From assembly GCF_964355755.1 (NCBI RefSeq), contig NC_092673.1, positions 17,791,648 to 17,855,647 on the forward strand: DNA of 64,000 nucleotides. Reading direction: 5' to 3'. The DNA is from Antedon mediterranea. Taxonomy: Eukaryota > Animalia > Echinodermata. The notes beneath the pieces are model-generated. The model worked only from the letters and a program-made list of their open reading frames with translations, searched no databases and was not told where the DNA came from. Position 1 is the stretch's first letter. Every line of letters starts with the position of its first letter. This document shows, piece after piece, positions 1,747 to 51,351 of this stretch. The position numbers and the translations under genes were made by a program.

Positions 1747-1836
1747 ATGTTCATGACATCGGAAGCCCTTTACATCGTAGTGTTTGATCTCAGTACCCCT
1801 CTTAATGATCCTGCCATTACCATTGATTCAAATGGA
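1747..1836 (+). CDS. Gene A module 1 Roc exon (MFMTSEALYIVVFDLS)
   Basis: tcctag acceptor, gtaagt donor, Roc strand motif following G3. Confidence 0.88.
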
Positions 1837-4800
1837 GTAAGTATTTAAAGACAATGTTAAGGTAAAGGTATTTGTGATTAAAGATACCTACCAGAAGAGT
1901 GAGACGATTAAGAAAAAAATATGACTATTTTATTTTATTTTAATCAAATAAAGATATAATGTGTAGTGTTTTTTTTCTTTCAGCATAAACGTAAACATCA
2001 TTGGACCAATCTCCAGTTCATATTATCTTACATCCAGACAGTTTATTCTCATAGTCGTATTGTGAGAAAAAACATAGAAAAGGGAGTTCACGAACCAACT
2101 ATTCTTATTGTAGGTACACATAAGGGGAAACTTGGCAGGACTGAAGAACAACAAAATGATGAGGTTATATACTTTCATTATTAAACTAGTAACCAGTATA
2201 CATTTCTGTTCTAAAAGCTAATTTAAAGAAAGTATGACTACTAGAGAGCTGTATTGAATACATTTATATCAAAAGTTCTTGAATGTATTCAATACAGTAT
2301 CCTAATGGAGGTCTTTATAAAGTTTTGAGGTGTACTTTTATCTTTTTTTACAACCAGGCCAAGATGTCATTCAAAAAGATCCATGATGTGATTAAAAGTC
2401 AACCATATGGAAAGCATGTATATCACCGATATTTTGCCATTGAAAACAGCCAAGAAACTACAGATAAGAGCTTTAGTGATCTCAAACAAGTTATTGATGA
2501 GCTTATGAAAGCTTTAGAAAAGGAAATTCCTTTGAAGTGGATGCGTTTCCGATGTGAACTAGATTATCTAAGAAGAGAAAAACACTTTTCTTTGTGTCGT
2601 TTAGGAGAGGTAAGTTTTATTAGCATCATTTTTTGTTTCTGTTTTTACAGAAAAAAGAAACATTTAACAAAAAAATTTATTAATATTACATTTTACACAG
2701 ACAATCCAATATACAGTTATTATTTATTTATTATATTTATTACTAAAAGACGTCAGTGAAGGAGAGGGCTAACCAGTTCAAATGCACTTCTACAACAACC
2801 AAAACCATATTTGCATTGGATAATGAAAAAAGAGTCAAGAAAACATTAATTATTTACAAAATTCAAATGTATCTAGGCCTAGAAACATTCAAAATAAGAC
2901 AAAAAATAGTAAATTAAAAATTTATTTAATTTATTTATTCTTGGTTCTAGAAATATCAGTAAATAGTTAAATATTTTGGCGCATATGGCGTTTCATATGT
3001 TTTAATACAAAAATAAAAATGCCAACTGGTGGACTATAATGCCTTGTCTACACTATCAAACTTTATGATGTGTCCAAATATGGTAGTGGTATGCCCATAG
3101 ATGGTAGTGATATGACATCATCATGTCCATACTGTATATGGGCACATAACTTTGTTTTGGCACATAAAGTTTGATAGTGTAGACAGAGCTTAACATATAA
3201 AAGAAAATAACTACAGCCTTGGGGCAAGTCAGAATTTTGTTATTAGCTAAAATTATGTAGATTGACAATTGACACATACACAAATAGAAACCCATGTGCA
3301 AACATCAACAGACAGTAATATTAACCTATTTTTATTATATTATTATGAAACTTATTTATATAACACCAATTGTTTTATATTGTTTGATGGAGGTTTGTAT
3401 GGTGAAATTAAATGTTGATATCAAGTTTTGCGGTACACCACCTATATATAGTTCTGTATTTGATTAATATACTTTGGTCGTCCTCAGGAGTGAGAATGCT
3501 TTGTGATAATTGTTTTGTTGTTATTGATTTTCCACATACAGATACAGAACAACATAAAATTCATGATGAAAAAAGAGTTGTGTGGCTGCAAATATGAACT
3601 TTAAGGCTTTCCCATGAACAAAACAATAAATGCACTTCAATTGAATAAGAATGAAATTTAAAATCTAAACAAACTTTTATTTATTTTATATTCAAAATTG
3701 TCAAAAAGTCAGTCTCTCCATGGTGATGTACTTTTGCTTCTGTATTTTTACCTCCGCCAAGGAGGTTATGTTTTCACCCCTGTATGTGTGTGTGTGTGTG
3801 TTTGTGTGTGTGTCTGTGAACAGCCTGGAGGCCACAGTTTTTATCCGATTCTAACCAAATTTGGACACAATGATCTATGCCCAAAAAGCTCGGACGAGTT
3901 CGAATTTGAGGGGGAAAGGTCATAGGTCAAGGTCACAACTAACAAAAAACTATTTTACTGCCTAGAGACCACAGTTTTGATCCGATTCTCACCAAACTTA
4001 GCCACAATGATCAATGACACATCATATAATTGTGGTTAAATTTTGAAGGGTCAGGGTCAAAGATCAAGGTCCACAAAAAAAAAAAAAAATCAAAAAATAA
4101 TTAAAAAAAAAAATCCTCAGTGAGACTTGAACCAGCGATCTCAACTGTGAGAGGCTGGATACATAACCATTACACCACACTGTCATCCACAACTTTGTAG
4201 TGTGCAGTTAACATATTTACACTTAGAACTAATAAAAAAAATGTAAAAAAAAAAATATTCAGGGGCCATTTTATGTAGGGGAATTTTACAGTAGGCGGAG
4301 GTTTGTACTCTCGGAGTACCCTCTAGTTGTATAATATTTTACAATGCGCTTTGGGATTCCATATGCTGCAAATATTTCAAACATTCTTTTTTGATTAATA
4401 GAGTCAAATGCACGCTTAAAGTCTTCAAAAAACATGTGTCCTATGTATTGTAAAATGTGTAAAATTCACTTTATATCTGTTGAATTATAGGCCTATCTGT
4501 AAAATATAGAAATTAGGAGAAATTTAGGGGAAATTTTGCGGACACTCTCGTGTTATGGAGTACTGTTGTTGTTGCGAACTCCTTGACTGATTGTGTCGAA
4601 TAAATAAATGAAAAATGAAATGGAAAATAATAAGAGTATATTTACATAAATTTTACAAAATATTCTGATTTTGAAATATTTTATTATTTCTTTAGCTGAA
4701 AATGCTGGCAAGCAACTATGGTATTGTTGACGAATTGGAAGTATCAGTCCTGCTTCACTTCCTGTATGATCTTGGTGAAATTGTTTACATGCCTGACAAC

Positions 4801-7800
4801 AAATTATTAAGAGATAAAGCAGTGTTAGATCCGATGCAGCTGGTTGAAATTGTTACTGCATTTGTAACAGTCATTCGACCAGAATATCCAGTAAGTAGGT
4901 TCATAAAAATCTTAATTCAGTGATCCTTGGGGAAATAATAGAGGTACATGTGAATTTCTATATCATTCATGTATCAAATGCAATATCTGACAGTTACCTT
5001 ATAGTTTAACATTGAGTGATTGTATAAGGGTTTAAACATGTAATTGCATCTATAATTCTGCTGTTTGATAACTTAATAAACACAAAATCATATGTATGGC
5101 TAATTGGCGGTATTTTTTTTAGCTGCCCATGTTTAGCAAAGCTTTTGATAAACTTGGCGAGGGCATACTGGAGGAAGACTTGTTGCGTGAATTATGGAAA
5201 AAGCGTAAAGTTGACGAAGGAAAGAATTTTGAGTTCCTTGTAGCACTGATGATTCAATTAGGTTTCATTTGTGAGAGAAAGACAACCAGCAGCCAAGATG
5301 TGGCAAGTACATCTACAGTAGGTTTTATTCAGTTATCTTTTATTAAGATTATGTAAAAAATATATTTTGGTGTGATACATAATTGGTGAAATTTTACATA
5401 AATTTTCAAAATATTTGTAGGGTTATGACATTTTGGTTAAACATCCTGCTGAAAGATGTTTTTAACATGTACAGGAAATGATCTTTACTTATTAAAAGAA
5501 ATCTAAATGGCATTTTACAAATCAACAATTTCAGGAATCTGTTGGAAAGCGATCATTCTTTGTGCCACTACGCCTTGCTTTCAAGACATCAAGTGAAGTG
5601 AAACCAGCGCCTGATGATTCACAATCTATCAGTATCTATTACGACTTTAAGGGATATCTGCCAGATGTATTGTTTCCATACATGATTATTGATTTCCTCA
5701 ACAAATTTCAAAAGAAAGGAGTTGACCCAATACTGTTGTATAATCATGCTGTACTCTACTTAGACCAAGATCATCATGTGACTTTATCTCTTGTCAAACT
5801 TGTGACTAAGAAGAATGAGCAAAAGTTCTTGTTAAAGGTATGACAGATTCTATTGCTATTTGAATGTTTAATATTTTTGATTGATTTAATTTTTAGTCAA
5901 AAGCAAAACCATTCTGTTAACAGCCCTGCAATTATCATAAATCAATAAATAGATCTTATTACTAGTTTTATATTCATTGTTGAGAATTTATTTTCAATAT
6001 TATAAATTTAGGATATAGAAATGTCACAACTAAGTTTTCCTTTCAGATGACTATTAAAAGAACAGCAAGTTTTGGTAATGAGAAATATGACCCTTCCTCT
6101 GAAGCTTGTAAAAAGGTTTGTAACAACCATTTGTTGATTACTATATGAATAATTGTTTGACATTACAAGATATTAACAATAATTAATTATATCAAATAAA
6201 AACAAAGAGTTTGCTTTCTGCTATTTGTTTAACAAAATGATGCCAGTAATCTATATTATAAGTGAGAGAGTTTGTCTGTCTGTCTGTCTGTCTGTTTGTT
6301 TGTTCGTTATACAAATTTTTGTTACTGCACGTAATCTTACATATGGGGTATCAAAATGACCGCAATTGTACCGGGAATGTTCAACATCATCCGCTGCCTA
6401 GGATCCAAGTTAGGGACCAAAATGTGGTCAAAACCCCCCACTTTCGATGTTTGTTCGTTATACAAATGTCTGTTTCTGCACGTAACCATACGTATGGGGT
6501 ATCAAATGATAGCAATTGTACCCGGAAGGTTTTAAACTACATTTACAAAAATTCCACCGACTTCTGGGGTTTTTGTGGGAGGGGTGGGGGGTGGAGGTTT
6601 GTTGTGGTGGTTTGTGATGTCATATTTGCTAGGGCTCGGGGTTGTAGGCTATCGAATTGTAAATTATACTATAAAGGTTTTACAGTATTTCAATTATCCT
6701 CAGGAAAGTGTTTGGGGAAATATAGATATAGATAATATACATATTTCAATCATTAACCAATATGACACCTATTCAATTACACATTTAGCAAAGTACTTTA
6801 ACCATATCCAGCTATGTATCGGTCTTTTGGATTGTCTCATTACAGACAGCCATTCCTGTGTGAACATACACACGTTGTTTACTGTTACTGTGTAAAACTA
6901 CACACCATGCCTCCAAGGAAAAAACGTCCATTGTGGGAGAGTGGGGTTTGGGAGTTGGGGTTCAGGGGATAGTGGGGATTTTGCTTAGACCAGAATTGTG
7001 TTTGGAAATGTTAAAGTATTTAATTATCCCTGGGAAAGCGGCTGGGAGTTTGGGGTGGGGATGTAGGCCTATCACCATGACCGAAACTGTATTTGGAATG
7101 TTTTAAACTACATTTGAAAACTGCCACTGAGGGATTATGGGTTGGGAGTGATAATAACATAATTTGTACTGGAACAGTCTTCAACACATCACCCAGTGTA
7201 TCTGGGGTGTGTTTGTAGGGGGAGGAGGAAGAGTGAAAATACTGGCGTAATGAAGTAGCCTATATGCTTGGAATTGTACTAGGAAAAGTTACTATATTTG
7301 AACTGTCTAGGGGAGGAGTTAAGGTGTGTTGATTGTGGCTGGTGGTGAGAGGAGAAAGAAGGCTGGAGGACCGCAGTATCTAAATTAGATACATGACCGA
7401 AACTGGGAATGTTTAAAACTACATTTGAAAACTGCCACTGAGGGATTATGGGTTGGAAGTGATGGCTATCATAATTTGTACTGGTGAGAGGAGAAAGAAG
7501 GCCGGGGGACCGCAGTATCAACATTATATATTTTAATTATCAGCCAATATGACACCTACTCATTTACACAGTTTACAACGTACTTAAGCCATAGGCCTAT
7601 CATAGCTATGTATGCCCTCTCAATTTGAAGCTAAAGTTTAATTGAATTTGTCCTTCACTGTAAAGGGTGTGGGGTGTTATTAAGGGGTGGAGGTTGGTGC
7701 GTATACGGAGATACTGGCGTCGGGTGTTATGTACTGAGAAGGCTTTAAACTCATTTTGAAACCCGCCCTGGGGCGGGTATAATTGCTAGTAAGTATTAAA

Positions 7801-10800
7801 ATTGTATTTTTGTTGTCAAAAGTCAATGAAAACTTTTTGGGGGCCGCATACAGGAAGTACTTTAAAAACAGAAGATCTTTAATGTGTACTACTGATTCAA
7901 AAGCATATATTTGATATACAATATTATTCTTATTGTGTGTCCTAAATTGTCAATTTGCAGTGTGCTGTACATTATGTTGTTAGAAATCAACATTCAATTT
8001 TATATTTTTAGGCATTGTCAACGGTTGAGATGTCATTTGAACTTCCTAAAGATGGTGGTAGAAGAGGGATTCAGTTTGAGAGATGCATACTTTGTGACAA
8101 GTGTAGTGATACATTAGGAAAGAAGCATATTCAAATTCTTGAGGATCTCCAGCATGAGAAGTTGCCATGTAATAAAGATGGCAAGCTTGTTGAGATGGAT
8201 GTGGCACGTTACAAGAGACTATTTGGAAGTAAGAATAATAATACAGTAGTAATATAACAAATGTACAGCATACTGTATCCTTTAATACATAATATTAGTT
8301 AATAAATCCCTTTAAAGGCATTGAATTAATATTGTTTTGCAGTATGTTGTCTTATACACATCATTTTTAATTTGTGGTAGAGTAGTTGCTGGGGCGGATC
8401 CAGAGGGGGGGGGGGGGGCCCACGGGGTCCGGACCCCCCCCCCCTAAATTTTAAGGGTGCCCTTTTTTTAGAGGTTCAATATTTTATTCGTGTGACATAT
8501 TTGTGTGTATATTAGTATGCACAGAGTAGGCTACACTAACCCCAAAAATTGTGACGCGTGATGATCTCTACTTAAACTTCTAAAAATAGATCGTTTCACA
8601 TACTACAGAGGGCGCATGTAAACTTTTTACGATTCAACTCCGCGTACGTTACCATGCGCGCTATGTCATTGACGCGATTATTTGTCCATTGGTAAACACA
8701 TTTTTGTATTATTATTCTGAAAATAATTGAACAGTAAACATAATTCTTTTGAGTATTTGTTTATTTACATATCATACATTCCATCAGATCAACTATTTTT
8801 AATTTCCATAATACATCCAACCAAACATGTAAAAAATGTAGTTAAAATATCGTACTATCTAGCGTGTACGACCATACGCGGTAGATTGTTTACTCAAAAA
8901 TCATCGAACGGTCCTTTACACTATTCAACCTTGTTTTTGTAGTTGAGCCTCTCATGACCTGGGATTTGTTTGTCTTCCTACGCCAAGATAATATAGTTCT
9001 ACAATCCATGTGCTTTTTTCTCTGAGAAATATTATAGGCCTAAGTGCCAAAAAAATGTTTTTTTCTCGATATGAAGCCTTTATTATTCAAATCTTTAGAA
9101 AAATCACACATACCATAAAGAAGGTTCATTTATTTCATTTTTGAAACAATATTTGTGAAAATTACGTGAGGCTCAACTACAAAACCACCATTTTGTGATA
9201 TGATGTCATCGTAAGCCAATCAAAGCTGAGCTTTCCCGCGATCGGCAGAGCTCACGGTTGAATGATTTTGGATTCTGGCTATTTGATTGGTGGACGCGAA
9301 TCACCCACAGCGGAATGTTTTCTCTCGCGTGTACCAAGAAGTCGTGATCTCTCTGTACTGAACGGTACTACACAAATTTAGAGCAATGAATTTGTACGAA
9401 TTCCGTTAAATAAACAACTCTATATATTTTATAAACATTTTTATTGATATTTCCAATGTTAATATATAAAAGAAATTACTATAAAAACGTAATTATATGT
9501 AATTATTTCAGCGAAAAATGGCGCAATTTGTTTACAACGTTCGTGGCTATAAAGCGTGGTTCCCACTAGCGACGCAACACACGGACGTAACGCAACGTAA
9601 GTGAATTGACCAATCACAAGCGATGGCTTATTCGCTTGTGATTGCTAACTGTATATAACTTTGCTTGTCATTGGTTAAAACGCTTGCGTTGCGTTTACGT
9701 CCTTGCGTTACGTTCTAGTGGGAACCAAGCTTTAATGATCATTTTCGGCAATGTTTTAGACCCTATATTTCGAAAACTACAAGTCAGATTTTCGTAATTC
9801 TTTCTTTATTGGAATATTGAAACAAAATACCAACAGATAATGTTTAAATTGGTTGAAAAATAACAACTTTTAATTTTGCATCGTTATCCCTGCTAATAAA
9901 GTGTTATTTCCGGCAAACTAGAAAGGTGCCATTTATCATGGATTTTGCGTGCGAGAGTGCCATTTCCGGCCATCTAAGTGTGTCCTGTAACAAAATTCGC
10001 TTCGCCACAACCCCCACCATGGGGGGGGGGGGGGGGCTGTTGCTCAAATACTCAATATCTGATGTGCCCTTTTTATTGCCGGACCCACCTCTCAAAAATG
10101 TCTGGATCCGCCCCAGAGTTGCAAAAGTTATGGTAACATTGCTAGATGATCATAACATTCTGTGGTTGTACAATTTTCTAATTCAATCCATAATCTCTTA
10201 CTTGAGAGATAAGTGATATAATGCAATTTTTTTCCAAAGAATTAAATGTCTGAGATGTTTATGTCTACATTTCTAAAAATTGAATTTTTTATCATCTCGG
10301 TGTTGGCACTATAGTTTAGCCACACACACTCTAAACATTTTAATGCTGATGTTTATTGATTTAATTTAAAATAATGTAAATCTGATTTTTATCAGTGCAA
10401 AAGAATATTCCATCGGCTATTGCTGCTCAGAGTCCAGAAATCATATTAGAGTATTTTAAAGCCTTGAAAGAGGGATATGTCCCTGTCAATCTTGGAATGC
10501 TTAAAGTGATTGGGCAAGAAGGAGTGGGCAAAACGTGCCTAGTCAATGCATTACTAGGAAAGAAGTAAGTACTAGTTATTAGTCAACAAACATTACGACA
10601 ACCAAACTAATGCATAGAAGATAGATTGACATCTGTTAAGTGATTGCCTTATTTAATATAATATATTTAATAATATTATTGATTTACGTCAGATTTCAGA
10701 AAAACCATTCTGTAACAAATGGCATAGCACTGACTACAACTGTTCGCTCAAAATGGGAAGAAGATAATGCTGATAGTGGTAAACATGATGAATTATTATA

Positions 10801-13800
10801 CAAATAATGAATGTTTATGAGTTGGATGGTGAGAATATTTCATGAGTTAAAAGATCGACTGCTCTATTTTTAATGAGGCAGAGCCGACTCATGAAAAATT
10901 CTCTCCATTCAATGAATACAAAATAGTCATTATTTGTTTTATAACACACCTACTTTTATTCGATGTATCTATCATAAATCATTGATGAATGCTAGGCCAG
11001 GAAGATAGGCCATTCAAAAAGACAGTGCTCCAACTTTGGATGTGGAGTAGAACAGTTATGATGGCATGCACAACAAGTTGATTTTTGAACGCAATCAGCC
11101 AACAACATCGTGTGGCAAACATTTTCAAATTGTTTACAAAAAGCCTAACATGCTTTCAATCAATCTGGCAACTGTGGCATGGTGTCAGCAGTTTAAGTTT
11201 TATATAATTTACATTATACAATTGTTATTTACAAGCAAGCTATGTTACCGTGTTTTAATGCTAAACTGTATTTTTTAATGAAATTGAATTACATTAATCA
11301 ATGAGTTTGACAGTGGTAAAACGTCCAGATTATAGTCACATATCAATGTATTCACTTAAATCAAACATACTGTACGATCTACACAAATATGTAAACTTTG
11401 GTTTTATCCCAACAGGTGATCCTTTAAAACAGTTTGGAAAATTGGTTGCTGACAAACTGAGGAGAGCATGGTTAAATAGAAATGTATGTCAACAATAATG
11501 TAATACAAATAAATATTACTGACATTTCCGCTATCAAACCAACCATAATAAGTGAATGTTTTTGTTATGAATTTTGAAAGTTTTCTCAAAGTTAAGTTAA
11601 GTTGGAAAGTAAATGCTATTTTATTTACACTATTAAAGCTAGACAATATTATTATGTCAGGTTGAAATATCAGCTATAGATGATGACGACCGTGTTGATA
11701 TTGTTGATGAAAATAGTATTGATAACAATGGTGACAATAATGATCATGGCAATGATGTAAATGATGACAACCACGACAATAATGATGACCATGGCAATGG
11801 TGTTAATGATAACAACCACAACAAAGATAATGATGACAATGGCACTGATGTTAATAATCACAACCACAACAATGATGATGAACATGGTTTGTAACTTCTC
11901 CTTAATTTATTCTTCCAGTCAATAACACTGATAAAAAGAATATTATTAAGAATTGAGTATTATTGATATTAAGAGCGGTTGACTACAAATATCAACCTAT
12001 TGTGGCCAAATGTAAACAAAATGGATTTTCTTCATACTTTGATAATTAATCACACTTTATGTAAATATAACAAAACTGAAATATTTTTGGAACAAAATTA
12101 ATTGTTGCAATGGTAACAATTAACGCCAATTTTACCAATTTGGCATGTGAATTTTGCCCTTAATTAGATATAGGCACCTCCAAAAAAAAAGAATTTGTGA
12201 ATTGTTTTTGTGAAATCTTGCTCTTATGTAAACTTGCATAAAGAAAGTAAGGGACTGCCAATTTTAAACGTAATATCCTTTATAGATTAGATCATAGTTC
12301 AAGAGTTATTTAGATTTTCCCTCCAATGAAGTACATGGAGACCCAAGTTGTTCAATCCACTACCCAATATATTTATAGAAAACACAACTTCACCTAGAAG
12401 GGACACAGGCCCTACACAGACTGATGAAAGTGCGCGTAACTTACTCTGAAACACGCCGTTTTTACTCCACAGAAATGAATTAATTTACTTTTGGTTTTTA
12501 TGCTATGATCAATCATTGAAATTCATAAATCGTAATTCATAAGTCTGACTTCATTAAAAAATAGGAGGTGTACAACTTGTGAAAGTCGATATGTTGACAA
12601 AGTTAAAAAATATTATGTTTACACGTTTTTGAGAAACGCATGCACAAAAATAGGGTGGAAAGAAAGAAGAATAATACAGAAAAAAAAAGATGATCTCATA
12701 CAATTTCAATAATGATAACAAGGACCATTATGATGCAACAATGTTATGAAATAATATTTGTTTTACCTACAGATACTGAAACTCTATTGAATACAGATAA
12801 AAATGTACTTCAGAATTTTGAACTAAATGAGAGAGAAACCTATGATACCTTCAACATCTGGGATCATGGGGGACAAATGATGTACCATGGTATACATCGT
12901 GTAAGTTATAATTGTATTTGTATGTAAGTACTTTATATAGTATATAGATATACTTTGGTATTATATTAACATTGATATTTTATCCATATTTCTATAATTA
13001 CTACACAATCTGTAAACTCTACATAAAGTTGTATTAGTTAATCTTGTTTCCACCTAAAGTAACCTATTTAAATGTAGAAATACATATTTTAGTACAAAAG
13101 ATTACAATGTCTTTCCATGGTACTAATTTATTTTTTTGAAATGCACTACTATTACCTTACCTACAGTAAAGCCTGATTTTTGTATAATTTTGTCCACATG
13201 TCAATACAAACCCTTGGTAAATGTCTCATTTAACGTCGACTAACGTCGACAGGAAAACAGGCTTTTAAACAGTCTACCAAGTGCTATATTTTCAGTAACT
13301 CTTAATTTATGGTTTTTGTTTTCAATTTTTACTGGTTCAGGGTATTCATGAATTTGTACTACAAAAAAATTGCTTTATTGGAATGAGTATGAGTCGCATC
13401 TAGCTTGGCTAGTTAGTTAAGCCTGATCTGTTTGTCTGGCTGACAACAGGAGCACATATTGCAAAAAAACTTTTTTCCACCTGCTCCTCCCAAAACAAAT
13501 TTAGAACTTGACAGCAAACAAACAATTTTTTTTAGGCCTAATTAGTAAAATTTTTTATATACATTATTTTTCTAAATGTTCATGACATCAGAAGCACTCT
13601 ACATTGTAGTGTTTGATCTCAGTAGACCCCTTAATACTTGTGCTACTGTCATTGATTCTACTAGAGTAAGTATTTCAAGATATTGTGATAATAATGTATT
13701 TTCCCCCAAAAACATGAAAAATGAAGATTAATAAAATCAGACTTTAAATAGCCCATTTTGCAGTTTTAATAAAGTTATTTACTTCTGTGAAAAAAAATAA

Positions 13801-16800
13801 ATAAATAAGTATTTCACTTATAAAAATACAAAATAAGTGGTTAATTTTAAACAAAAACTACTGACAGAAAACTAATGTGCAAACATATTGCAGTTATTAT
13901 GTAAAAACGATTAGTTTTGACGTTAAATGTGCAAAAAGAATTCCTACAAATGTACAAAAAGAATTTCTACAAATGTGCAAAAAGAATTCCTACAAATGTG
14001 CAAATTATTTTCTCTTGACAACAGTTATAAACCATGTGTTGTTATGCGCACATCAAATTATTCAACACAGGGGATGTATAAAAAACACACTACCTATACC
14101 TAATTACTACAATCATGAGTGACTCTTGAATTAATTTATAATCATCATAATTCTTGAGATTTTTAGTACGTTTAGTATATTTAAAGATGTATTGTCGCAC
14201 TGAAAAAATAATTCTCACCACAATTTTTGTTGAATATGCCATTTTAATGTAACATAATAGTTATCCACTTTGACCAAAAATTGGACGGAAAAATGTATTT
14301 ACCTGAAAAAACTGTAATTGATTGAATTTAACCATTTATTAGGTTATATGCAATATCATGCATGTATATTGATTCTGTCAAAATCTTTATTTATTTATTC
14401 TTTCCTTAGCACTATTTCCTTAGTCAATTTTTCACAGTAAATTCCTTATGGCCAGGAATCGATGTGGTTATGTTTCACGATGGGCAATCAAAAATTTAAC
14501 GAAATCATGTTTGTTTCATATATCAAGCATGAATCACAATTAAACAAAATTTGGTATTTCAGGTCATATTTCATCATGTGGCAATACAATTACGTGCGTA
14601 GCGCATAATGCATGCGTACGCTCGCTTAACATTTTTTAAATAGTTTTTTTTAGTTAGAGTATGTTTCAGGCAACTTTAAGCGTTTAAAAAATTGCAATGA
14701 GTGCGTAGATTTTTTAACCGGCACTGCACGTTAAACGTTGATATGCACTCATTTTGCCCGATTTCTGTTTTACAACTTTTCTTTAATAATATCATCATGA
14801 TTCACTTTTCTAATTGAAATTGCGTTATACGAGCACGTCAAAAGTGACAGGCTATGCACATGTAAGTTAACAAAATAGTGAAAATATGCTAAATTTTAAA
14901 ATTATTATAGATCGTCAGAATGCTCGGGAACACCTATTTTTCATTTCATTTTCTTGAAGTGTATGTATCATATGTATGATTTACTATGAAATTAAGAGAA
15001 CAAAAGTTGATTAAGTCATCATCAATTGCATATTAAATTTTTTTTTTAAATTAATTTTGACAATCCAACAAATTATGACATTTTCTTAGGCCGAAATAAT
15101 AAACTTAACATTAACTTTCTTCCTTAAAATGTTCATATATGAAAAGTTAATAGTATATAGTTTGACATAGTTTTGTCATTGTTTATAATTTTTAAAGATG
15201 CCATCATAGTAACAAATTATAATTCATTGCAGTATGTAATAATCTATTTGCACCAAAGTGGTTTACTGCATAGTAAATACATGGAGGAATCTTTCTACAA
15301 CTGTAAGTCAGTTGTGTATGGCTCAGTGGTCTGTGCTCGTGTCTATGGCATTCAAGGTACCGAGATCGAGTCTCACCTTGGGAAACGAAACAAAATCAGA
15401 TTTTTTTTTAATATCCGTATTGTTTGTTCAATTTTATTTCTTATAGTGTATAGATTATACACATGATTTATAATGAAATCTCGATAAAAAGTAACTTATG
15501 TCTTTATTATTACTGTATGTAACAAATGTGGTTTATGACATTATACGCAGAGGGATCTTTGATCGGATTGTGATACCGGCTATTGTATTTGCGTTAGGTC
15601 CTATCATATATTATAAATAATTAAAGATTCTGGGAAAATCAATCAATCAATATATTATTTAAAAATTTAATATCTTTATTTAAATCAATGCATATAACCT
15701 ATAATTTGTCATAGTGACGAATTAAATCTACCGGTAGTAAATATTTGTAATTTTATAAGTGAAAACATAATTTTTTTTTTCTATGGAAGTGATTAACTTT
15801 ATTAAAACTACAAAATGATTCATATTCTGATTTAATTAATCTTCATTTTTCATGTTTTTGGAACATCATTAATAGAATTTAGGAGTTTATTTTAATAATT
15901 TTATAATTGAGCTTATTCCAAATAATTTAGTCCTTAAATAAATATAGATCTATTACTGGATGTAAATTTTGAGAAGGCCATACACATTTTCATGCAATTT
16001 CTAAGAGTTTTTGTCACTCTAAACTCTAAACTGAAATGTCATTTTAATTGAACATTATTTTGCAGAAAAAGCGTAAACATCATTGGTCCAATCTTCAGTT
16101 CATATTATCTTTCATCCAGACGGTTTATTCTCATAGTTGTAAGGAAGTGAAAAAAGACACTGAGAATGAAGTGAAAAAAGACACTGAGAATGAAGTTCAC
16201 AAACCAACTATCCTTATTGTAGGTACACATAAGGGTAAGCTTGGTTGTACTAAAAAAAAACAAAATGATGAGGTAATACTATTTCTGTTTATATATTAGG
16301 GAGTTTTCGCAGGAGCACGTAAACGTTAACTTTATTTCCCAACGTGCAACATGCAAGCTCCACTCCCTTTGTAAACAAATCGATCTGCGAGAGATCACTT
16401 ATTTTTATTAATTAGGCGGTAAAGTGCAGGGAAACAAGAATTTCTGTATATTTTCGTTCTGCAGAAAAACTCGCTGAGATTTTCACTGTTTCTAAGGACC
16501 CTTCCACATGTGTCTGCTCTACTTTTGGTTAATGCATTGAGCAAAATGTTGTCAATACCTTTGGCAAATTCAAGTAACAATGATTCCCGTCTAACTTTCA
16601 GATGAGGTAGACTAAGCAGTTCAAGTGCTTAGCCATACGATTCAAATTGCTGGCCAAGGATAATTCTGCAAGCACCTTTCTGTAATACTCTCTAATTCTT
16701 TAGTCTGTGCATCAGTTAATCCAAAATGCCAGACAGGACAAGCATATTCTAAAATAATTAAGAAAACAAAAATGGGAAATTTAAATTTATGTTTTAATTA

Positions 16801-19800
16801 AGCCAAACAATAAGAATTGTGCATCACAATATCCTATTTATCATATGCATGATTAAACAAGCCTAGCTAGGTGTAGTATCTAAGGCGCCAAGGTATTCCA
16901 TTATTTGTTTTAAAACGAGCAGAGTATGTTGTGTGCGCGACACATGCGTTTCGTTCTACACTTCCCGTCGAAATCAAAAAAGAGTATGTTGCGCAACTGT
17001 TGGCTGAACTACGCTGTTATGCAAATAGTAGAATGTTGACATCATCCGTTAAAGTTTACGTGCTCCTCTGAAAACTCCCTGTTATTAAAAATTGAGAATT
17101 AATACATTGTTGCTTTAAAAGCTACTGGTGTATGTATTCAATACTTTATTTTTTCAATTAAAATATTATTGTCCTTGCAATATATATAGACAAATTTGAA
17201 TTGTTTATTATAACCAGGTAAATAAGCTGTTTGATGAGATTGATAAGGCACTTGAAGACAAACCATATGAAGAACATGTACATCGACCATATTTTGCCAT
17301 CGAAAACAGCAATGCTGCAGATGAGAGCTTTATTGAACTCAAACAAGTTATTGATGACCTTATGACAAAACTAAAAAAGGATGTTCCTTTAAAGTGGATG
17401 CGTTTTCGATGTAATCTACATGATCTAAGGAAGCCTTTTCCTTTGTATCCTTTAAAAGAGGTAAATGTTGTTTCTTTATTGAATGCCACACTTATATAAG
17501 TTGGCTATGCAGATTTTTTTCATGTTTTGAGTTGCAAAAATGTGGTAATGTAATGAACCTATCACAACAATAATGCTTGCTATAGCTTTTGTACGATGTC
17601 TTTGTTGTGTAATGTTTCAAGAATTTTTCAAACATGCTCCTTTATGTTACACTATATTATACTACACTAATTTACAAAAAACTTTTTTAATGACATTTGG
17701 ATGTAAAAAATGAATAGAATTTCATAGTGGAATAATACATGACATTTGTTATTTCTTTAGATCAAAACACTGGCTTCTAAGAATGGCATTGTTGGCGAAA
17801 GGGAACAATCAATGGTGCTTAACTTCTTGTACGATATTGATGAAATTATTTACATGGCTGACAGGACATTATTAAGAGATCAAGTGGTGGTAAATCCAAA
17901 TAGCTTGGTTAACATTGTCACCCAATTTGTAACTGTGGTTCCACCAAAAGTAAGTAGGCTCATATCAAATTACAAACAAGTGCTCAATATCATTTCTTTT
18001 TCCTTTTGGAAAAACAGTATTTTCTAAATTTTAGAGGCAAGATAATTTTGAACAGTAATGGAACTACTGTATAGAACTATAGAATACCCATCTATGTTTC
18101 CTTTGGTAAAAATGATGTTTTCACACGTCAAATCAAATGACATCATGATTAGTAAAAGCAATAATATCGTGACAATACAATGATTTTATTGTTTTTATTT
18201 ATCATGACATCATTTGATTTGAATTTTAAAAATATTATTTTTATCAAAAACAGCATAATAATTATCTTATAGCTCTAGAACAAAAACCATTCTAATTTCT
18301 TTTGTTTTATGTAAAAAAATGCATACTTATCTATTTATCATCGATCGTGGTGGTATAATGTATAAGATTATATGTGATCCTTAAAACTTGTTATTGTGTC
18401 TATTTAAAGCAATGATGCGTTGTCATTCTCCTTCAGTTTCTGAATATTCTGTCACTGAACACACAATCACATTTGTGGCTAATTATTGGTGCTTTCTTTT
18501 AGCCGACCGAGTTTATAAAGGCTTATCGTAAGCTTGGCGAGGGCATACTAGAGGAAGTCTTGTTGCAAAAATTTTGTAAAGAGTGTAAAGTAGATGTATG
18601 CAATGTAGAGAATTTTGAGTTCCTTGTAGAACTGATGATTCAATTAGGTTTCATTTGTGAGAGGGAGACAACCAGCAGCCAAGATGTGGCAAGTACATCT
18701 ACAGTAGGTTTTGTTTCTTTTTATTGTTTATGTAAACCATTTTAAAGGGCCAACTGAGACAAGTTTACATTTTTATGCTCTTTACTTTGTATGGCATTTG
18801 ATGAAATAAATGTTTGTTGAACTTGTTGATAAATTAATAATTTCTAATGTGTGTAATATGATTTGTCTGTGATTTTACTGAATAGTTGATACACAATTTT
18901 AGCCTTGTTGATACACAATATTTCTACTAAAAGATATTTTTAACATATAAATTAACTGATCTTTGGTTCTTTTAAATGACATTACACAAATTTATCAATT
19001 TCAGGAATCAGATGTAAAGCGATCATTCTTTGTGCCACTACGCTTTGCTTTCAAGACAACACGTAAAGTGAAACCAAAACCTGATGATTCACAATCTATC
19101 AGTATCTATTACGACTTTGAGGGATATCTGCCAGACGTATTGTTTCCATATGTAGTTAATGAATTCCTTTCCAAATTTCAATCTGATGGATTTAAGACAG
19201 AACTATCGTGTAATTATGCAGAACTTTACCTCAACGAAATTCATCATGTGACTTTATCTCTTGTTAATTTTGAAACTAAGAAGAATGACTCATCTTTTGA
19301 GCAAAAGTTCTTGTTAAAGGTATTGTACAAACTCTAGTGAATATTTAATAAATATCACAAATATATTTTAATTTGATAGAAGTTAAATAAAAAGCAAAAC
19401 AATTTATATATTATTTATTTGCTTATAGTATATATTATTTATTTTATTAAGGTCTTTATGCCAATTTATTGTCAATTTCATAAATCTGTTAAATATCAAT
19501 TAAAGAATTTACTTTTCATACATATCAACTCAAATTCTAATATCAATTATTTTGGTTATTTTTTTACAGATGACTATTAAACAAAACAAGAAATGTGACC
19601 TATGTCCACAAGCATGTCAAAAGGTATGTTATGATTGTGTTTTTGAGATATTAAGAGTAGTGTTTATACATTTTACATCCATTTGTCTATTGCATACAAA
19701 AAGTGTTGTATATTAACACTTAATAGAGTATTAAAAATATGTAATTCTGTAAAAATAATCATCATTGAATAGTGGCTGGGGTTCAGGAATTGTTTAAAAA

Positions 19801-22800
19801 AAATGCTTGAGGTTATCTGGAGACAACTGTTGCTGATACACGGTATAGTATAGTCTCTAGATCACCTCATAGCAATAAAGTAGCAATGATTTGAAGAAAA
19901 TGTATAGCAGTAGCCTACCTTTTGCATATATTTTAATAAATTTATAAAAATGTTTCTTTTATTTAAAATACATATGTTATTTATTTAGTTTTAGTTTAGT
20001 TTTCATTTCTTTTTACAATTGTATTGTAAATAATTAAATTCAACATTTTTCAACGCTTCTGTTCAATAAAGTAGCTGTTATTTTATTTTGTTTTGTAAAT
20101 TGTCTGTTACAGATATCTCTAAATTTGTATTTAATTTATATCTTTAGGCTTTGTCAACGGTTGAGAAGACATTTGAACAATCTAAAGATGGCGGTAGAAG
20201 GGGGATTCCATTCAAGAGATGCATTCTATGTAGTTGTAGTGATAAGAAAAAGAAGCACATTCGAAAACTAGATACATCCAAGGACGAGTTACATTGCAAC
20301 ATAACTGGCAAGGATTTTTGGACTGATGTTACATGTTACAAGCAGCTATTTGGAGGTAAAGTAGTAACAGACTACAACTTACAAGTTTAATTATATTTCA
20401 TTTATTTCAACAATATAGTAACAATGCTATAGGCTGATGCAAAAATGTTGTTGTCTTCATCAATTTGGCAAATGTATTTCTCCTCCACTCCACACCAAAA
20501 AAAGACCTCAGTTAATAACTAGCACATGGTGGTGAAATCACTCACGGAATCACAGAATATACAATTGTCAATTTAAGCGTGTAACTAAATAACTGAATAA
20601 ACAGTGGTCGAGGTTCTTAAATAGTGGACATCCCGATCAATAATGAAATCTAAACATTGTTAGTCACATGATTACAGAACACACAGTTGGATGTAAATAA
20701 ATGAGCAAGCTTTTTGACTAAAACAGTTGTAATCCACAACCCTGTAAAATACTGTGTGTTGTCACAGCTCTCCAATATTGATACTATAAAACAGGATACA
20801 AAATAAAGAATAATAATGTACTGTGCTATGACAAACAAACGATTTTTGTCCTGTAATTGAATTATATATACACTTATTTCACCTTTTACAGAGATATCTC
20901 CTGTTACAGTTCCAGATCAAACATGTATTCAAGGTAATCACAAACTTGACTAGGTTTCTCTTTCTGTTCTAAATTAATGTAGCTAATGATTATTTATAAA
21001 TCAAAGAGCTGCATAGGCAGGGTAGATGGAAGAAAATCAAAATCAAACAAGTTAAAACTTCTTCAATATAAATTTATTAATATGACATGTTTCGGGGATA
21101 GCCCAACATCAGGTCATAATCATCACCTGATGATGGGCTATGCCCGAAACATATATTAAGGATCATATTTAGGTTTTTGTGTCTCCAGGACATAAATATG
21201 GGTGTTTGATTTTTTTTACCACATTTTGCAAAGCCATGTCCTGGTTGCCAAGAAATCAGAAAATTTAACCAATTTTAAGCTGTGAGAATTTACACTTTTT
21301 TTCAATATTAATTAGTTATAATGAATTTAAGGGAAATTAAAGTGTTATAAAACTCAAATCAATTGTTTTCTGTACTTTCCAGTGACTCTGAATTTAAATT
21401 CAGATTCAATTTGTACTCTCCAAGTAATGTCTTCTTTACTTATAAGACTCTTCCCCCACAAACACCTGAACGTTTAGTTTGTGTAACAGTTGATTTTGTA
21501 ATATTACTGTGGTTTATTGTATTACACACAACGTGAAATTGAGAAAGCCATTTTACATTCCATTGGTTGCTCTTATAATTATTATTATAGTGTTCTACTA
21601 TGTTATGTTATCTACATATATAAGAGTTATTTTCCTGGTGATTAGTGTATGTGTAGTTAATTGCACTAAACTTATAATATAGATAATAAAGAAAATATAA
21701 AATACAGATCATATATTGAACACTTTACTTTTCACAGATGTGCCAAGTAATTCTCCAGCTGATCCATTACTTGCATCAGGTGACCAAGCCAATGGTAAGA
21801 TCTATTTTTTGGCCATACATACATTTTGTATAAATTACAAAATTTAAATACAGTGTTTAATAAAGACAGCATAGCTTTTAAATGCTTGAAGGAGAATAGA
21901 ATTAAATAAATACATTAAACCATCATACACCATATTAAACAACTCCACTTCCAAAGACTTGTTTAAGACCTTTGACAATGATAGTAAATTAATTCACTCA
22001 TGCTTATTTTTGGCACTTCTTTTCCTTTAAAAAACTAGTTTTTAATAAACAGACTAACGTAGCTTTCAACACAGGCAATGTGTATTATTAAATTCTAGCA
22101 ATACTATCAGGTTTATCTGGTATCAACTTCTTTGAGAACAAATTTTAAATTGCTGATTATTTGCACTTGTTCAATCATGAAGCATGTGTGGTCTAATGGT
22201 TAAGATGCTTGTCCTGGTTTGTATTCATATCCAAGCATTTGAAAGACACAATTTTTTTTTTTTAAAGTGGAAATATTTTGTGTTTTAGTCAAGTCAATAA
22301 AACGAAAGTTTGTACAATACCATAAACACTAAAATGTACTTGTATACAGTATTTACAATGTTAAAAAGTATACAAATAATGAATGTTTATGAGTTGGATG
22401 GTGGAGAATATTTCATGAGTTGACAGAGGCTATATATTTGCTATATATTTAAGTCGGCGATCCACCATCAACAAATACAAACATTCATTATTTGTTTTAT
22501 AGCACACATACCTATTATTCCTAGTTTAAAAAGTAAAAAGACGATATGAAAAATTAACAGGCAATTGAAACTGATCAACTGTAGGCTAATTCTGTGTTTT
22601 TTCCACTTCTTGTATAATTAATTAAAATCATACAAATGATCTGAAGCTAATCTTTTTTGGGTCTAAATTAATACAAAATCAAAAACTGGTCTCTCTCTCA
22701 TGGCTTTGTTTTGCAAAAATTCTATGGACATCCATGTGTACTGCATGCAGTGGATATTTACATTAGAACAAATTTGAAAATGGACCAAACATGCATTGTC

Positions 22801-24955
22801 ATTGATTGAAAACAACACATTATTTACTTGAAATTTAATTTAATTCATTTATTTATTGTCTTTTCAGGTCAACTAGACAATCCAATGTAAGTAGTTTATG
22901 GGTTATCTAACTTTAATTTAACAACACTCACATTAACTCAGCAACACCAATTGTTATTGTTTTCGTTGCTGTTGATAGGTGTCAATTGGGGTCATACTAA
23001 TCTATGCCCTGTATCGCCCGGTAGGGTTTATATAAAATGTTATCAAGTACACAGTAACATTATATTTAATGTTATTGTGATATGGAATTGTACAGTTTAT
23101 ACATTTTTAATGTAAATAACTGTCAAAATTCGAAAAGAAAAGTACAACAATATTTTAGTTGATAAAAACTTGTGTCTGGAAAGAAAATATATTTAAATAT
23201 ATAAATAGTATAAGTTAAATTTACCATTAGAGAATGTTAATAACGTGTACTTGATATCATTTTACACCATAAAATTTGTGCCATCAAACTCTACTGGCCG
23301 TAGATTAGTATGACAAGTCAATTGACAACAAGAGAAGAATTTTTACCATGCTATTTTTTTTTTTACAGTTTTATTCTGAAAATGTTTCAAATACAGTAGT
23401 TATATTTGACCATTGATACAAAGTTATGACATACAGACATGTATAGCAAAATTAGTATTTACAATGATTATGTAAAATATTTATAGATAAGACAAACAAG
23501 AATGCATTGAGGTTTTTCTTGTAACATGCTCTCATGATTTTTGTATGGAGCATCATCAAATATAATACTCATCCTGTTAGCAAGAAGCCACAAAGTATGA
23601 TTTGAAAAACAAAGAATTTTAACTTTCATTACTGAATCAATACAATTTTAACATTTTGTTAATGAATGATCACTTGTTTATAAGTAATTGTATCAATTAG
23701 GTAATGTTAAACAACAAGAAACTATTGTAATATATTAATACTTGTGTTTCTGTTTTTCATTTCTAGTCTGAACCAAATGAGGTCTTTTTGGAAGTTTTTA
23801 AAAGGTATTTCTTTTTTTATTATTTTTCTATTTCTTGTTAGTTCAGATTCTAAAAAAAGTTTAGTTTGTTGTTACATTGTTTTTCTATTAGAAGATTGGA
23901 TGAAATTTGTAAGATTTTTTTCTTCCTTAAATAGTAATTACCTCCTCCAAGACGGTTATATTTTCACCCCTGTATGTTTGTGTGTGTGTGTGTGTGTCTG
24001 TGAACAGCCTGGAGGCCACAGTTTCATCCGAATCTGGCCAAATTTGGCCACAATGATCTATGCCCAATTTTGAGGGGAAAAAGTCATAGGCCAAGGTCAC
24101 AACTACTGGAACAAAAAACTATTTTACTGCCTAGAGACCACAGTTTTTATCCGATTCTCACCAAACTTAGCCACAATGATCAATGACTCATCATATAATT
24201 GTGGTTAAATTTTGAAGGGTCAGGGTCAAAGATCAAGGTCCACAAAAAAAAAAGAAATAAAAAAAAAAAAAAAAAAACCTCAGCGAGAATTAAACCAGCG
24301 ATCTTAACTGTGAGAGGCTAGATACATAACCATTACACCAAACTCTCATCCACAACTTTGTAGTGTGCAGTTAGCCTATTTACACTTAGAACTAATAACA
24401 AAAAATTTTTTTTAAATATATATATTTTCCACGGATATTTTATGTAGGGGAATTTTACAGTAGGCGGAGGTTTGTACTCTCGGAGTACCCTCTAGTTATA
24501 AATTGTATTTTAGCTAATATTATATATATCCCAGTAGGATGGTCCGGTAGAGTTTTATGGTATTAATATTGTATGTGTTTTTAAGCATCAAGGAAAACCA
24601 ATTTCATGTTCGCCTTGTTGTGTTCATGACAATAAAGATTTATCTTATCTTATCTTATCTTATTAGTTATAAATATTGATAATCTTATAAACTCAAGCAA
24701 AAGTATTTTTGTTCTACTTTGATTTCAGAACACTGGTGTATAGTCACTTCTGTAGTCACTGTATTCTTGTTTTGTCTACTTGTAATCACTGTAATCCTGC
24801 TGCTATGCTTTCCTGAAGCACAAGCAAGAATTGGCTTAGGTGCAACTTTTATGCTTGGTAGTGGTGTTCCATTAATCTGGTATATGCATAAAAAAATGAC
24901 TCGTGCTCAGCAGTCAGAAAACACAACGGCAGGCACACAGACAACAACAGTCTAA
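1747..24955 (+). CDS. Roco gene A (5'-truncated by window): tandem Roc-COR modules plus C-terminal 2TM; 26 visible exons
   Basis: Exons chain in frame: 1747-1836, 1984-2163, 2358-2609, 4696-4890, 5123-5317, 5535-5837, 6047-6115, 8012-8228, 10396-10564, 10693-10778, 11416-11483, 11661-11886, 12773-12900, 13576-13665 (AA acceptor), 16066-16272, 17218-17460, 17761-17949, 18503-18703, 19005-19319, 19570-19623, 20148-20355, 20892-20933, 21738-21794, 22868-22886, 23767-23804, 24729-24955; total 4068 nt ending in TAA. Roc motifs GQEGVGKT, TNGI, WDHGGQ, IVVFDLS, VGTHK; COR motifs IPLKW, LHFLYDLGEIVY, FFVP. Confidence 0.8.
1984..2163 (+). CDS. Gene A module 1 Roc exon with G4-like ILIVGTHKG
   Basis: tttcag acceptor, GT donor; paralogous to 16066-16272. 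Confidence 0.9.
2358..2609 (+). CDS. Gene A module 1 Roc end / COR start (FAIENS...IPLKW)
   Basis: cag acceptor, gtaagt donor; paralogous to 17218-17460. Confidence 0.9.
3747..4328 (+). mobile_element. Non-autonomous Helentron/HINE-type element, copy 1
   Basis: Sub-terminal inverted repeats cctccgcc/ggcggagg, (TG)n microsatellite, 3' hairpin gtactc-tcg-gagtac, ctagtt end; second copy at 23937-24497. Confidence 0.8.
4696..4890 (+). CDS. Gene A module 1 COR exon (LHFLYDLGEIVY...VLDP)
   Basis: COR-A motif; tttag acceptor, gtaagt donor. Confidence 0.9.
5123..5317 (+). CDS. Gene A module 1 COR exon (GILEEDLLRELW...LMIQLGFIC)
   Basis: COR motif, splice sites, paralog at 18503-18703. Confidence 0.9.
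5535..5837 (+). CDS. Gene A module 1 COR exon (FFVP...GYLPDVLFP)
   Basis: COR-A/COR-B motifs, splice sites, paralog at 19005-19319. Confidence 0.9.
6047..6115 (+). CDS. Gene A module 1 small COR exon (MTIKRTA...EACKK)
   Basis: tttcag acceptor, GT donor, phase 0-0; paralog at 19570-19623. Confidence 0.8.
6250..7789 (+). mobile_element. Non-autonomous Helitron
   Basis: A|TCTATATTATA start, (TGTC)n, 3' hairpin acccgccc-tg-gggcgggt followed by CTAG|T; internal duplications. Confidence 0.88.
8012..8228 (+). CDS. Gene A module 1 last COR exon (Cys-rich, RCILCDKC), phase-1 donor
   Basis: tttag acceptor, gtaaga donor; paralog at 20148-20355. Confidence 0.88.
8389..10116. mobile_element. Non-autonomous DNA transposon with 5-bp TSD (hAT5-like)
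   Basis: TIR ctggggcggatccaga / tctggatccgccccag, TSD agttg on both sides. Confidence 0.85.
9553..9731. mobile_element. Harbinger-like MITE nested in 8389-10116
   Basis: TIR agcgtggttcccactag / ctagtgggaaccaagct, TWA flanks. Confidence 0.7.
10396..10564 (+). CDS. Gene A module 2 Roc P-loop exon (LKVIGQEGVGKTCLVNAL)
   Basis: atcag acceptor, gtaagt donor, Walker A GxxxxGKT; not in the ORF track; same length (169 nt) as paralog 58663-58831. Confidence 0.92.
10693..10778 (+). CDS. Gene A module 2 Roc switch I exon (HSVTNGI)
   Basis: Phase 2-1 fit; Roc G2-like T-x-G-I. Confidence 0.82.
10799..10950. repeat. Interspersed hairpin-type repeat, related copy at 22371-22506
   Basis: Shared aaataatgaatgtttatgagttggatggtg...cattatttgttttata. 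Confidence 0.6.
11416..11483 (+). CDS. Gene A module 2 exon (GDPLKQFGKLVADKLRRAWLNRN)
   Basis: aacag acceptor, gtatgt donor, phase 1-0 fit. Confidence 0.78.
11661..11886 (+). CDS. Gene A module 2 Asp/Asn/His-rich insertion exon
   Basis: gtcag acceptor, gtttgt donor, open frame, phase 0-1 fit. Confidence 0.75.
12773..12900 (+). CDS. Gene A module 2 Roc switch II exon (FNIWDHGGQMMYHGIH)
   Basis: Matches the Roc WDxxGQxxYxxxH motif; tacag acceptor, gtaagt donor. Confidence 0.92.
13576..13665 (+). CDS. Gene A module 2 Roc exon (ALYIVVFDLS) with mutated acceptor (AA instead of AG)
   Basis: Paralog of 1747-1836 with intact frame and donor; acceptor reads ttctaa. Confidence 0.65.
16066..16272 (+). 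CDS. Gene A module 2 Roc G4 exon (ILIVGTHKG) with 24-bp internal duplication
   Basis: tgcag acceptor, gtaata donor; EVKKDTEN twice. Confidence 0.9.
16298..17080. mobile_element. Non-autonomous TIR element (Harbinger/ISL2EU-like termini)
   Basis: agggagttttcgcaggagcacgtaaac / gtttacgtgctcctctgaaaactccct; absent from the paralogous intron 2164-2357. Confidence 0.7.
17218..17460 (+). CDS. Gene A module 2 Roc end / COR start (FAIENS...VPLKW)
   Basis: accag acceptor, gtaaat donor; paralog of 2358-2609. Confidence 0.9.
17761..17949 (+). CDS. Gene A module 2 COR exon
   Basis: LNFLYDIDEIIY; tttag acceptor, gtaagt donor. Confidence 0.9.
18503..18703 (+). CDS. Gene A module 2 COR exon
   Basis: GILEEVLL...LMIQLGFIC; splice sites. 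Confidence 0.9.
19005..19319 (+). CDS. Gene A module 2 COR exon
   Basis: FFVP...GYLPDVLFP; splice sites. Confidence 0.9.
19570..19623 (+). CDS. Gene A module 2 small COR exon
   Basis: MTIKQNKKCDLCPQACQK; tacag acceptor, gtatgt donor. Confidence 0.8.
20148..20355 (+). CDS. Gene A module 2 last COR exon (Cys-rich)
   Basis: Paralog of 8012-8228; phase-1 donor. Confidence 0.88.
20892..20933 (+). CDS. Gene A linker micro-exon (EISPVTVPDQTCIQ)
   Basis: tacag acceptor, gtaatc donor, phase 1-1. Confidence 0.6.
21738..21794 (+). CDS. Gene A linker micro-exon (DVPSNSPADPLLASGDQAN)
   Basis: ttcacag acceptor, gtaaga donor, phase 1-1. Confidence 0.65.
22868..22886 (+). CDS. Gene A 19-nt micro-exon
   Basis: ttttcag acceptor, gtaagt donor; phase 1-2, compensated by the next exon. 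Confidence 0.55.
23767..23804 (+). CDS. Gene A 38-nt exon (LNQMRSFWKFLK)
   Basis: ttctag acceptor, gtattt donor; phase 2-1 restores frame. Confidence 0.55.
23937..24497 (+). mobile_element. Helentron/HINE-type element, copy 2
   Basis: Colinear and highly similar to 3747-4328. Confidence 0.8.
24729..24955 (+). CDS. Gene A terminal exon encoding two hydrophobic (TM-like) segments and stop
   Basis: tttcag acceptor, phase 1; WCIVTSVVTVFLFCLLVITVILLLCF and IGLGATFMLGSGVPLIWYM followed by HKK. Confidence 0.78.
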
Positions 24956-25400
24956 AACAAGAACAATAGATATGACATAATCAATTAACTGTATGTTTAA
25001 ATACATCATGTCATATTAAAAAAATGACTCGTGCTCAGCAGTCAGAAAACACAACGGCAGGCACACAGACAACAACAGTCTAAAACAAGAACAATAGATA
25101 TGACATAATCAATTAACTGTATGTTTAAATACATCATGTCATATTAAAAAAATGACTCGTGCTCAGCAGTCAGAAAACACAACGGCAGGCACACAGACAA
25201 CAACAGTCTAAAACAAGAACAATAGATGTGACATAATCAATTAACTGTATGTGCAAATACATCATGTCATATTAAAAAAATGACTCGTGCTCAGCAGTCA
25301 GAAAACACAACGGCAGGCACACAGACAACAACAGTCTAAAACAAGAACAATAGATGTGACATAATCAATTAACTGTATGTGCAAATACATCATGTCATAT
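24890..25400. repeat. 128-bp tandem repeat, 4 copies, spanning the gene A stop codon
   Basis: atgactcgtgctcag at 24896, 25024, 25152, 25280. Confidence 0.95.

Positions 25401-51319: not shown

Positions 51320-51351
<32 letters not shown>

Follow-up and report, generated by a model that had tools for sequence, protein, structure and literature searches.

Two in-frame Roc-COR modules, the second with a broken splice acceptor, in a Roco gene array of Antedon mediterranea

A stretch of 64,000 nucleotides from Antedon mediterranea (the window) covers a portion of a Roco gene array and contains two Roc-COR modules that lie head to tail on the forward strand and can be joined into one open frame. 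The modules are different paralogues, and we propose, with moderate confidence, that they were fused by unequal recombination and that the product would combine one switch with a crippled second one, a second COR and a predicted membrane anchor. Since a splice signal of the second copy is broken, the gene likely makes no intact double switch. The arrangement is real, though probably damaged at this locus.

Gene model and Roco membership

The joined model comprises 8 exons of module 1 (1747-8228), 13 exons of module 2 (10396-20355) and 5 tail exons (with the stop at 24955), all on the forward strand, and amounts to 4068 nt, or 1355 aa to the membrane tail, with no internal stop. AG precedes 25 of its 26 exons, the exception being the AA before exon 13576. 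Module 1 is visible as the second half of Roc and the COR, its P-loop and G3 exons lying upstream of the window. Its Roc exons after G3 are 1747-1836, 1984-2163 (G4, VGTHKG) and 2358-2609 (G5 and the start of COR), followed by COR exons 4696-4890, 5123-5317, 5535-5837, 6047-6115 and 8012-8228, the last with a phase-1 donor; all 8 acceptors and donors are canonical, and the 1501 nt contain no stop. Module 2 opens with the P-loop exon 10396-10564, which encodes the helix before Roc and G1 (GQEGVGKT), and continues with Roc exons at 10693-12900, in which G2 and G3 (WDHGGQ) flank an Asp/Asn-rich insert (11661-11886). These are followed by exon 6 (13576-13665; 90 nt, phase 0-0), with AA for AG at 13574-13575, and by the G4/G5 and COR exons at 16066-20355, the last again with a phase-1 donor. 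In the tail (20892-24955), four small exons precede a terminal one (24729-24955) that encodes two hydrophobic segments and the stop; this tail matches the tail of the related protein P0006 with an E-value of 9e-4.

Several repeats accompany this gene. An 81-bp satellite (1-1578; 19 copies, 97% matches) occupies the intron preceding the first visible exon of module 1, and two copies of a repeat element, 85% identical, are found in introns of the same gene at 3748-4341 and 23938-24512. The end of the terminal exon, including the stop codon, is present in four 128-bp copies (24889-25406), and exon 11661-11886 is itself built of Asp/Asn/His-rich 45-48-nt repeats between G2 and G3, a segment whose length varies widely among relatives.

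Membership in the Roco family is indicated by Roc being followed directly by COR and, with relatives serving as proxies, by homology to solved Roc-COR structures. All of module 2 and the part of module 1 after G3 can be aligned over their full length with relatives scoring above the Pfam cut-offs for Roc and COR-A; single exons score below the Pfam cut-off, as fragments, the COR-A match on one module 1 exon having an E-value of 2e-6. When one COR exon of module 1 was searched, all 30 matches were to RefSeq proteins of Antedon mediterranea (64-97% identity, none identical). A profile built from 56 relatives matched 4wnr, 3dpu, 6hlu and LRRK2 best (E 1e-28 to 1e-11), and an AlphaFold model of the proxy P0007 (77% to module 1) reached a pLDDT of 83.5 and a pTM of 0.83, after a first run with 18 sequences had been poor (pLDDT 54.8). 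A complex prediction for the proxy COR domains P0007 212-566 and P0016 1-341 gave no answer (score 0.00, with alignments not used). Compared with characterized Roco GTPases (CtRoco 3dpu/6hlu/8r4b, M. barkeri Roco2 4wnr, LRRK1/2), the gene shares the order of Roc and COR but differs in having two modules per frame, a G4 motif lacking Asp and a long acidic Roc insert. Furthermore, most of its relatives carry DED, Death or membrane tails, in contrast to the LRR or kinase domains of known Rocos.

The Asp of G4 is the residue that reads guanine. In both modules, G4 is THKG (1984-2163 and 16066-16272), and among the Antedon class-A proteins scored, 16 have THKG and 3 have THKA, as against mostly THxD elsewhere. 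With this Asp absent from both modules and from the Antedon class, GTP specificity itself is uncertain, and a loss of guanine specificity across the whole clade appears possible from the motif.

The junction between the modules

The initial annotation proposed that the last COR exon of module 1 is joined to the P-loop exon of module 2 across an intron made up mostly of one transposon, and the features it described are present. Exon 8012-8228 ends in phase 1 at the donor GAA/GTAAGA, exon 10396-10564 begins in phase 1 after TTTTATCAG, and the join reads RLFG-M-QKNIPS; the element at 8389-10116 makes up 1728 of the 2167 nt of the intron (80%). A tblastn search with 39 relatives revealed no TM or DED exon within the 8228-10396 intron (best E 0.48), and module 2 is indeed a symmetric cassette with phase 1-1 (13 exons, 10396-20355, 2184 nt). 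What did not hold up is the use of the phase match as evidence of joining, which is no better than chance. The other modelled modules (Roc-COR as well as DED pairs) are also phase 1 at both ends, so the fit proves nothing, and neighbouring modules would be read in frame whichever pair was brought together. Apart from the COR end of module 2, this is illustrated by the next gene of the array (50398-58831, forward strand), whose phase 1-1 DED-pair exons and phase-1 P-loop exon (58663-58831) show that the modules are phase-compatible.

In the next gene, three DED-pair exons, or five counting a duplication, lie ahead of the Roc P-loop exon. The duplication is direct, spans 1885 nt (54820-56704 and 56699-58583; 99.84% identity) and includes two phase 1-1 DED-pair exons; it is either very recent or an assembly artefact. 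A CpG-richer segment at 41600-41920, which ends in a strong donor (41915), is a candidate promoter and first exon of this gene.

The DNA transposon-like element in the junction intron has 16-bp perfect terminal inverted repeats and a 5-bp target duplication, is high-copy in DNA contigs, and contains a nested palindromic element at about 9550-9734. Because the target duplication is intact, both flanks formed one site before the insertion, which argues against a mis-join. In one sample, DNA contigs from three runs bridge from exon to transposon end on each side and show no difference over 7900-8416 and 10088-10514 (or 10090-10514), although this is perhaps the assembly's own sample, in which case they are not independent; a contig from a second sample matches 8052-8208. 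Over 7900-13760, four contig sets gave no 8228^10396 joint among the 15 joints listed (306 more were not listed) and no entry for 13575 among the 40 of 210 differences listed, and no listed contig piece spans that base; one run that may be RNA covered introns and repeats as DNA would, so these comparisons weigh neither way. One candidate exon, open and in phase 1-1, lies within the transposon at 8788-8880; it had no homologue and was not retained.

Outside the transposon, the intron retains 434 nt of DNA with a GC content of 25-27% and 0-1 CpG, compared with a CpG o/e of 1.3 at the likely 5' end of the next gene. As these 434 nt are CpG-poor and hold no exon with a homologue, module 2 probably lacks a separate promoter, though the transposon could provide one. 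The donor, the acceptor, this low-CpG flank and the type of junction seen in the predicted protein XP_071947615.1 (see below) make the proposed single transcription unit with two Roc-COR modules plausible. On the other side, the phase fit is family-wide, module 2 has a broken acceptor ahead of a core Roc exon, and the tandem already occurs among predicted proteins.

Splicing of 8228^10396 is suggested by the splice signals, and these are uneven. The donor at 8228 is strong and scores above 17 of 28 donors; the acceptor at 10396 is rather weak, with 5.3 bits and a score that exceeds 4 of 28. Module 2 could also be bypassed, because the acceptor of the tail at 20892 is both strong and in phase with 8228; an 8228^20892 splice would leave 627 aa in frame, counted from the first visible exon. 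The read-through stop at 8255-8257 is also present as originally described, with AATAAA 43 nt further (8255-8307, forward strand). Module 1 might thus belong to an ordinary single Roc-COR protein, ending either at this stop or via 8228^20892, with module 2 a silent, decaying insert. Besides the in-frame skip, the weak acceptor at 10396 and the broken one at 13576, this explanation could draw on the AATAAA and on P0008 and P0015, the ends of which may fit donor read-through. Nevertheless, we consider it unlikely, given that splicing would have to bypass 13 exons with 12 canonical acceptors in a module free of coding lesions. The AATAAA is not distinctive and does not prove termination, as 6 of 24 other internal donors have one equally near, at most 60 nt from the stop that read-through would reach.

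Origin of the modules and the acceptor lesion

Modules 1 and 2 are 62% identical. The sister of module 2 is P0016 (SH-aLRT support 99-100), which covers only about 335 columns. An internal tandem duplication was rejected: in an AU test on 17 of the relatives' rows, a clade of module 1 and module 2 gave a p-AU of 1e-8, and 33 rows give the same picture (all trees are quick searches). A fusion is therefore likelier than a duplication. A search for the breakpoint by intron homology gave no signal (p 0.1-0.5), with 4 of 8 control intron pairs at p <= 0.02.

The COR ends of 27 Antedon mediterranea class-A relatives bear on what such a fusion would have removed. In 22 of them COR leads into a tail of at least 71 aa (DED, Death or membrane); the remaining 5 stop within 38 aa, 4 of these being modelled to end within 20 aa, which counts against the joined gene, and none of the 27 COR ends continues into a Roc. 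P0014, at one point taken for a Roc after COR, turned out to have a DED-like tail.

In the fusion that we favour, a deletion or unequal crossover would have taken the tail of gene 1 together with the promoter and first exons of gene 2, thereby joining two phase-1 introns, and the transposon would then have inserted into the joined intron. Transcripts starting at the promoter of gene 1 would be spliced from 8228 to 10396, and exon 13576-13665 would be either skipped in frame or mis-spliced, the latter leading to a premature stop. Fusions of this kind may arise repeatedly as phase-1 modules are shuffled in fast-evolving Roco arrays. The arrays are probably immune, a role suggested by the DED and Death tails and, by analogy, by proposals for other Roco arrays.

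A further possibility is that the whole locus is an unexpressed array fragment, or that the two modules serve as alternative cassettes, each spliced onto one common exon further upstream. The 5' part of the gene lies outside the window, many relatives are annotated as fragments, and with all modules seen in phase 1-1, alternative use would stay in frame. Against this stand the fully canonical splice sites and open frame of module 1 and a dN/dS of 0.55 between the modules, which reflects past constraint only. On balance, we regard either variant as distinctly unlikely.

The AA at 13574-13575, which the initial annotation overlooked, is one base in one assembly; the exon's upstream donor is an ordinary GT, and the module 1 counterpart of the exon has an AG acceptor. 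No in-frame, open substitute AG was found in 12960-13665, and three AGs downstream of the AA lead to stops. Skipping the 90-nt exon would keep the frame, leaving 1325 aa when counted from the first visible exon, and would delete 30 residues after G3 of the second GTPase core, including a core strand seen in the predicted model of a relative. Judged from the sequence, the second switch is thus probably crippled. Module 2 is otherwise free of stops and frameshifts over its 2184 nt, with 12 canonical acceptors among its 13 exons, and since it has no coding lesion, it may be intact in other alleles.

The last point would be taken further if the tandem were intact and working, with the AA an assembly error, a minor allele or tolerated, and two live modules pairing within the chain or linking chains. 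The absence of stops and frameshifts across 4068 nt, the intact G1, G2 and G3 of module 2, and the direct COR-to-Roc junctions of XP_071947615.1 and of two Branchiostoma belcheri models that keep both modules speak in its favour, as does the dimerisation of CtRoco via the C-terminal half of COR, as described in the accessible part of PMC6337361. Yet the AA follows an ordinary GT donor, G4 lacks its Asp in both modules, and none of the 27 COR ends described above runs into a Roc. In addition, the linker between COR1 and the helix preceding Roc2 is just a few residues long and may not have the reach that a two-fold pseudo-dimer requires. We therefore rate an intact working tandem as rather improbable at this locus and retain the fusion with a crippled second switch.

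Tandem Roc-COR chains in other proteins

A domain-architecture search for Roc-COR-Roc-COR, which the initial annotation had suggested, did find tandems, so that the window gene is not unique in this respect. Profiles for the P-loop, G3-G5, COR-A and COR-B, applied to the best 150 of 4508 library matches, identified a tandem in 4 of the 140 proteins that contain both Roc and COR; after an additional search seeded with one tandem, which biases the count upward, the number was 5 of 185 related predicted proteins. All five are gene predictions, which can fuse neighbours, and two of them, P0118 (with an odd linker) and P0175 (from Hondaea, with a TIR between the modules and no second P-loop), may be fused predictions.

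The junction from COR to Roc is direct in three of the five tandems, one from Antedon mediterranea and two from B. belcheri. The former, XP_071947615.1 (P0001; ankyrin-RocCOR-RocCOR-TM), resembles the window gene in its direct COR-to-P-loop junction and membrane tail, and exon 10396 finds its closest counterpart, of the same subtype, in the second P-loop exon of this protein (67%). Its first module, however, belongs to a distant class and is 26% identical to its second-module type, so this predicted protein either arose independently or exchanged a module afterwards. The B. belcheri predictions, XP_019630255.1 (P0141) and LOC109462063 (P0179), have the architecture LRR-RocCOR-RocCOR-...-GT4 and, like the window gene, join two different modules directly; they differ in being of independent origin and in their other flanking domains. 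P0141 and P0179 both retain the two modules and share 78% identity across 1419 columns; among the 49 long relatives that were found, 2 are tandem. The amphioxus Roco set is large, with LRR, ankyrin, TPR, RING and SH3 fronts and GT4 glycosyltransferase, caspase, OTU and Death tails.

From these predictions, tandem Roc-COR chains are apparently a recurring, undescribed Roco architecture. Two Roc-COR units per chain were not found described in the accessible parts of the Roco-architecture literature, which include a count of about forty animal Roco domain combinations (PMC11378527), a figure of which may draw one. The closest functional precedent, by analogy, is the tandem IRG proteins: in mouse Irgb2-b1, as described in the accessible part of PMC3810784, adjacent clustered GTPase units share one frame after the spacer has been spliced out. 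This GTPase family is unrelated, both of its units are intact, and their expression and function are proven, whereas splicing of the window gene is predicted and its second unit departs from intactness by the single base of the AA acceptor.

Clustered and expanded Roco arrays with shuffled flanks and a proposed immune role, like the crinoid array, are described in the portions available of reports on brown algae and Trichoplax (PMC11378527, PMC4104024). There, LRR or flanking domains shuffle, in contrast to the crinoid array, in which the whole Roc-COR is a phase 1-1 cassette; a crinoid Roc-COR moving in this form was not found described, nor was any description of crinoid Roco genes found in the Roco and invertebrate-immune literature, a scope outside which the original Bosgraaf and Marin surveys lie. 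Two DED exons of the next gene are closest to the C-terminal tails of a distant ankyrin-Roco class (P0033, up to 83%), which indicates module exchange between Roco classes. The locus also shows the crinoid Roc-COR moving as a whole between modules of the DED, Death, kinase, ankyrin and membrane types.

The way in which GTP turnover is linked to dimerisation in Rocos, among them the Parkinson's protein LRRK2, is still a matter of debate, according to the accessible part of PMC6337361. A natural chain with two Roc-COR modules could not fully dissociate and would therefore allow a direct test of dimerisation models, for which the predicted A. mediterranea and B. belcheri tandems are better candidates than the damaged copy in the window. 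It is conceivable, if doubtful, that crinoids and amphioxus repeatedly evolved two-module Roco chains as built-in heterodimers or chain-forming units, the window gene being one of them and intact in other alleles. If such intact, recurrent tandems do exist, they would form a Roco class not described so far and offer a natural means of testing whether Roco activation needs a monomer-dimer cycle.
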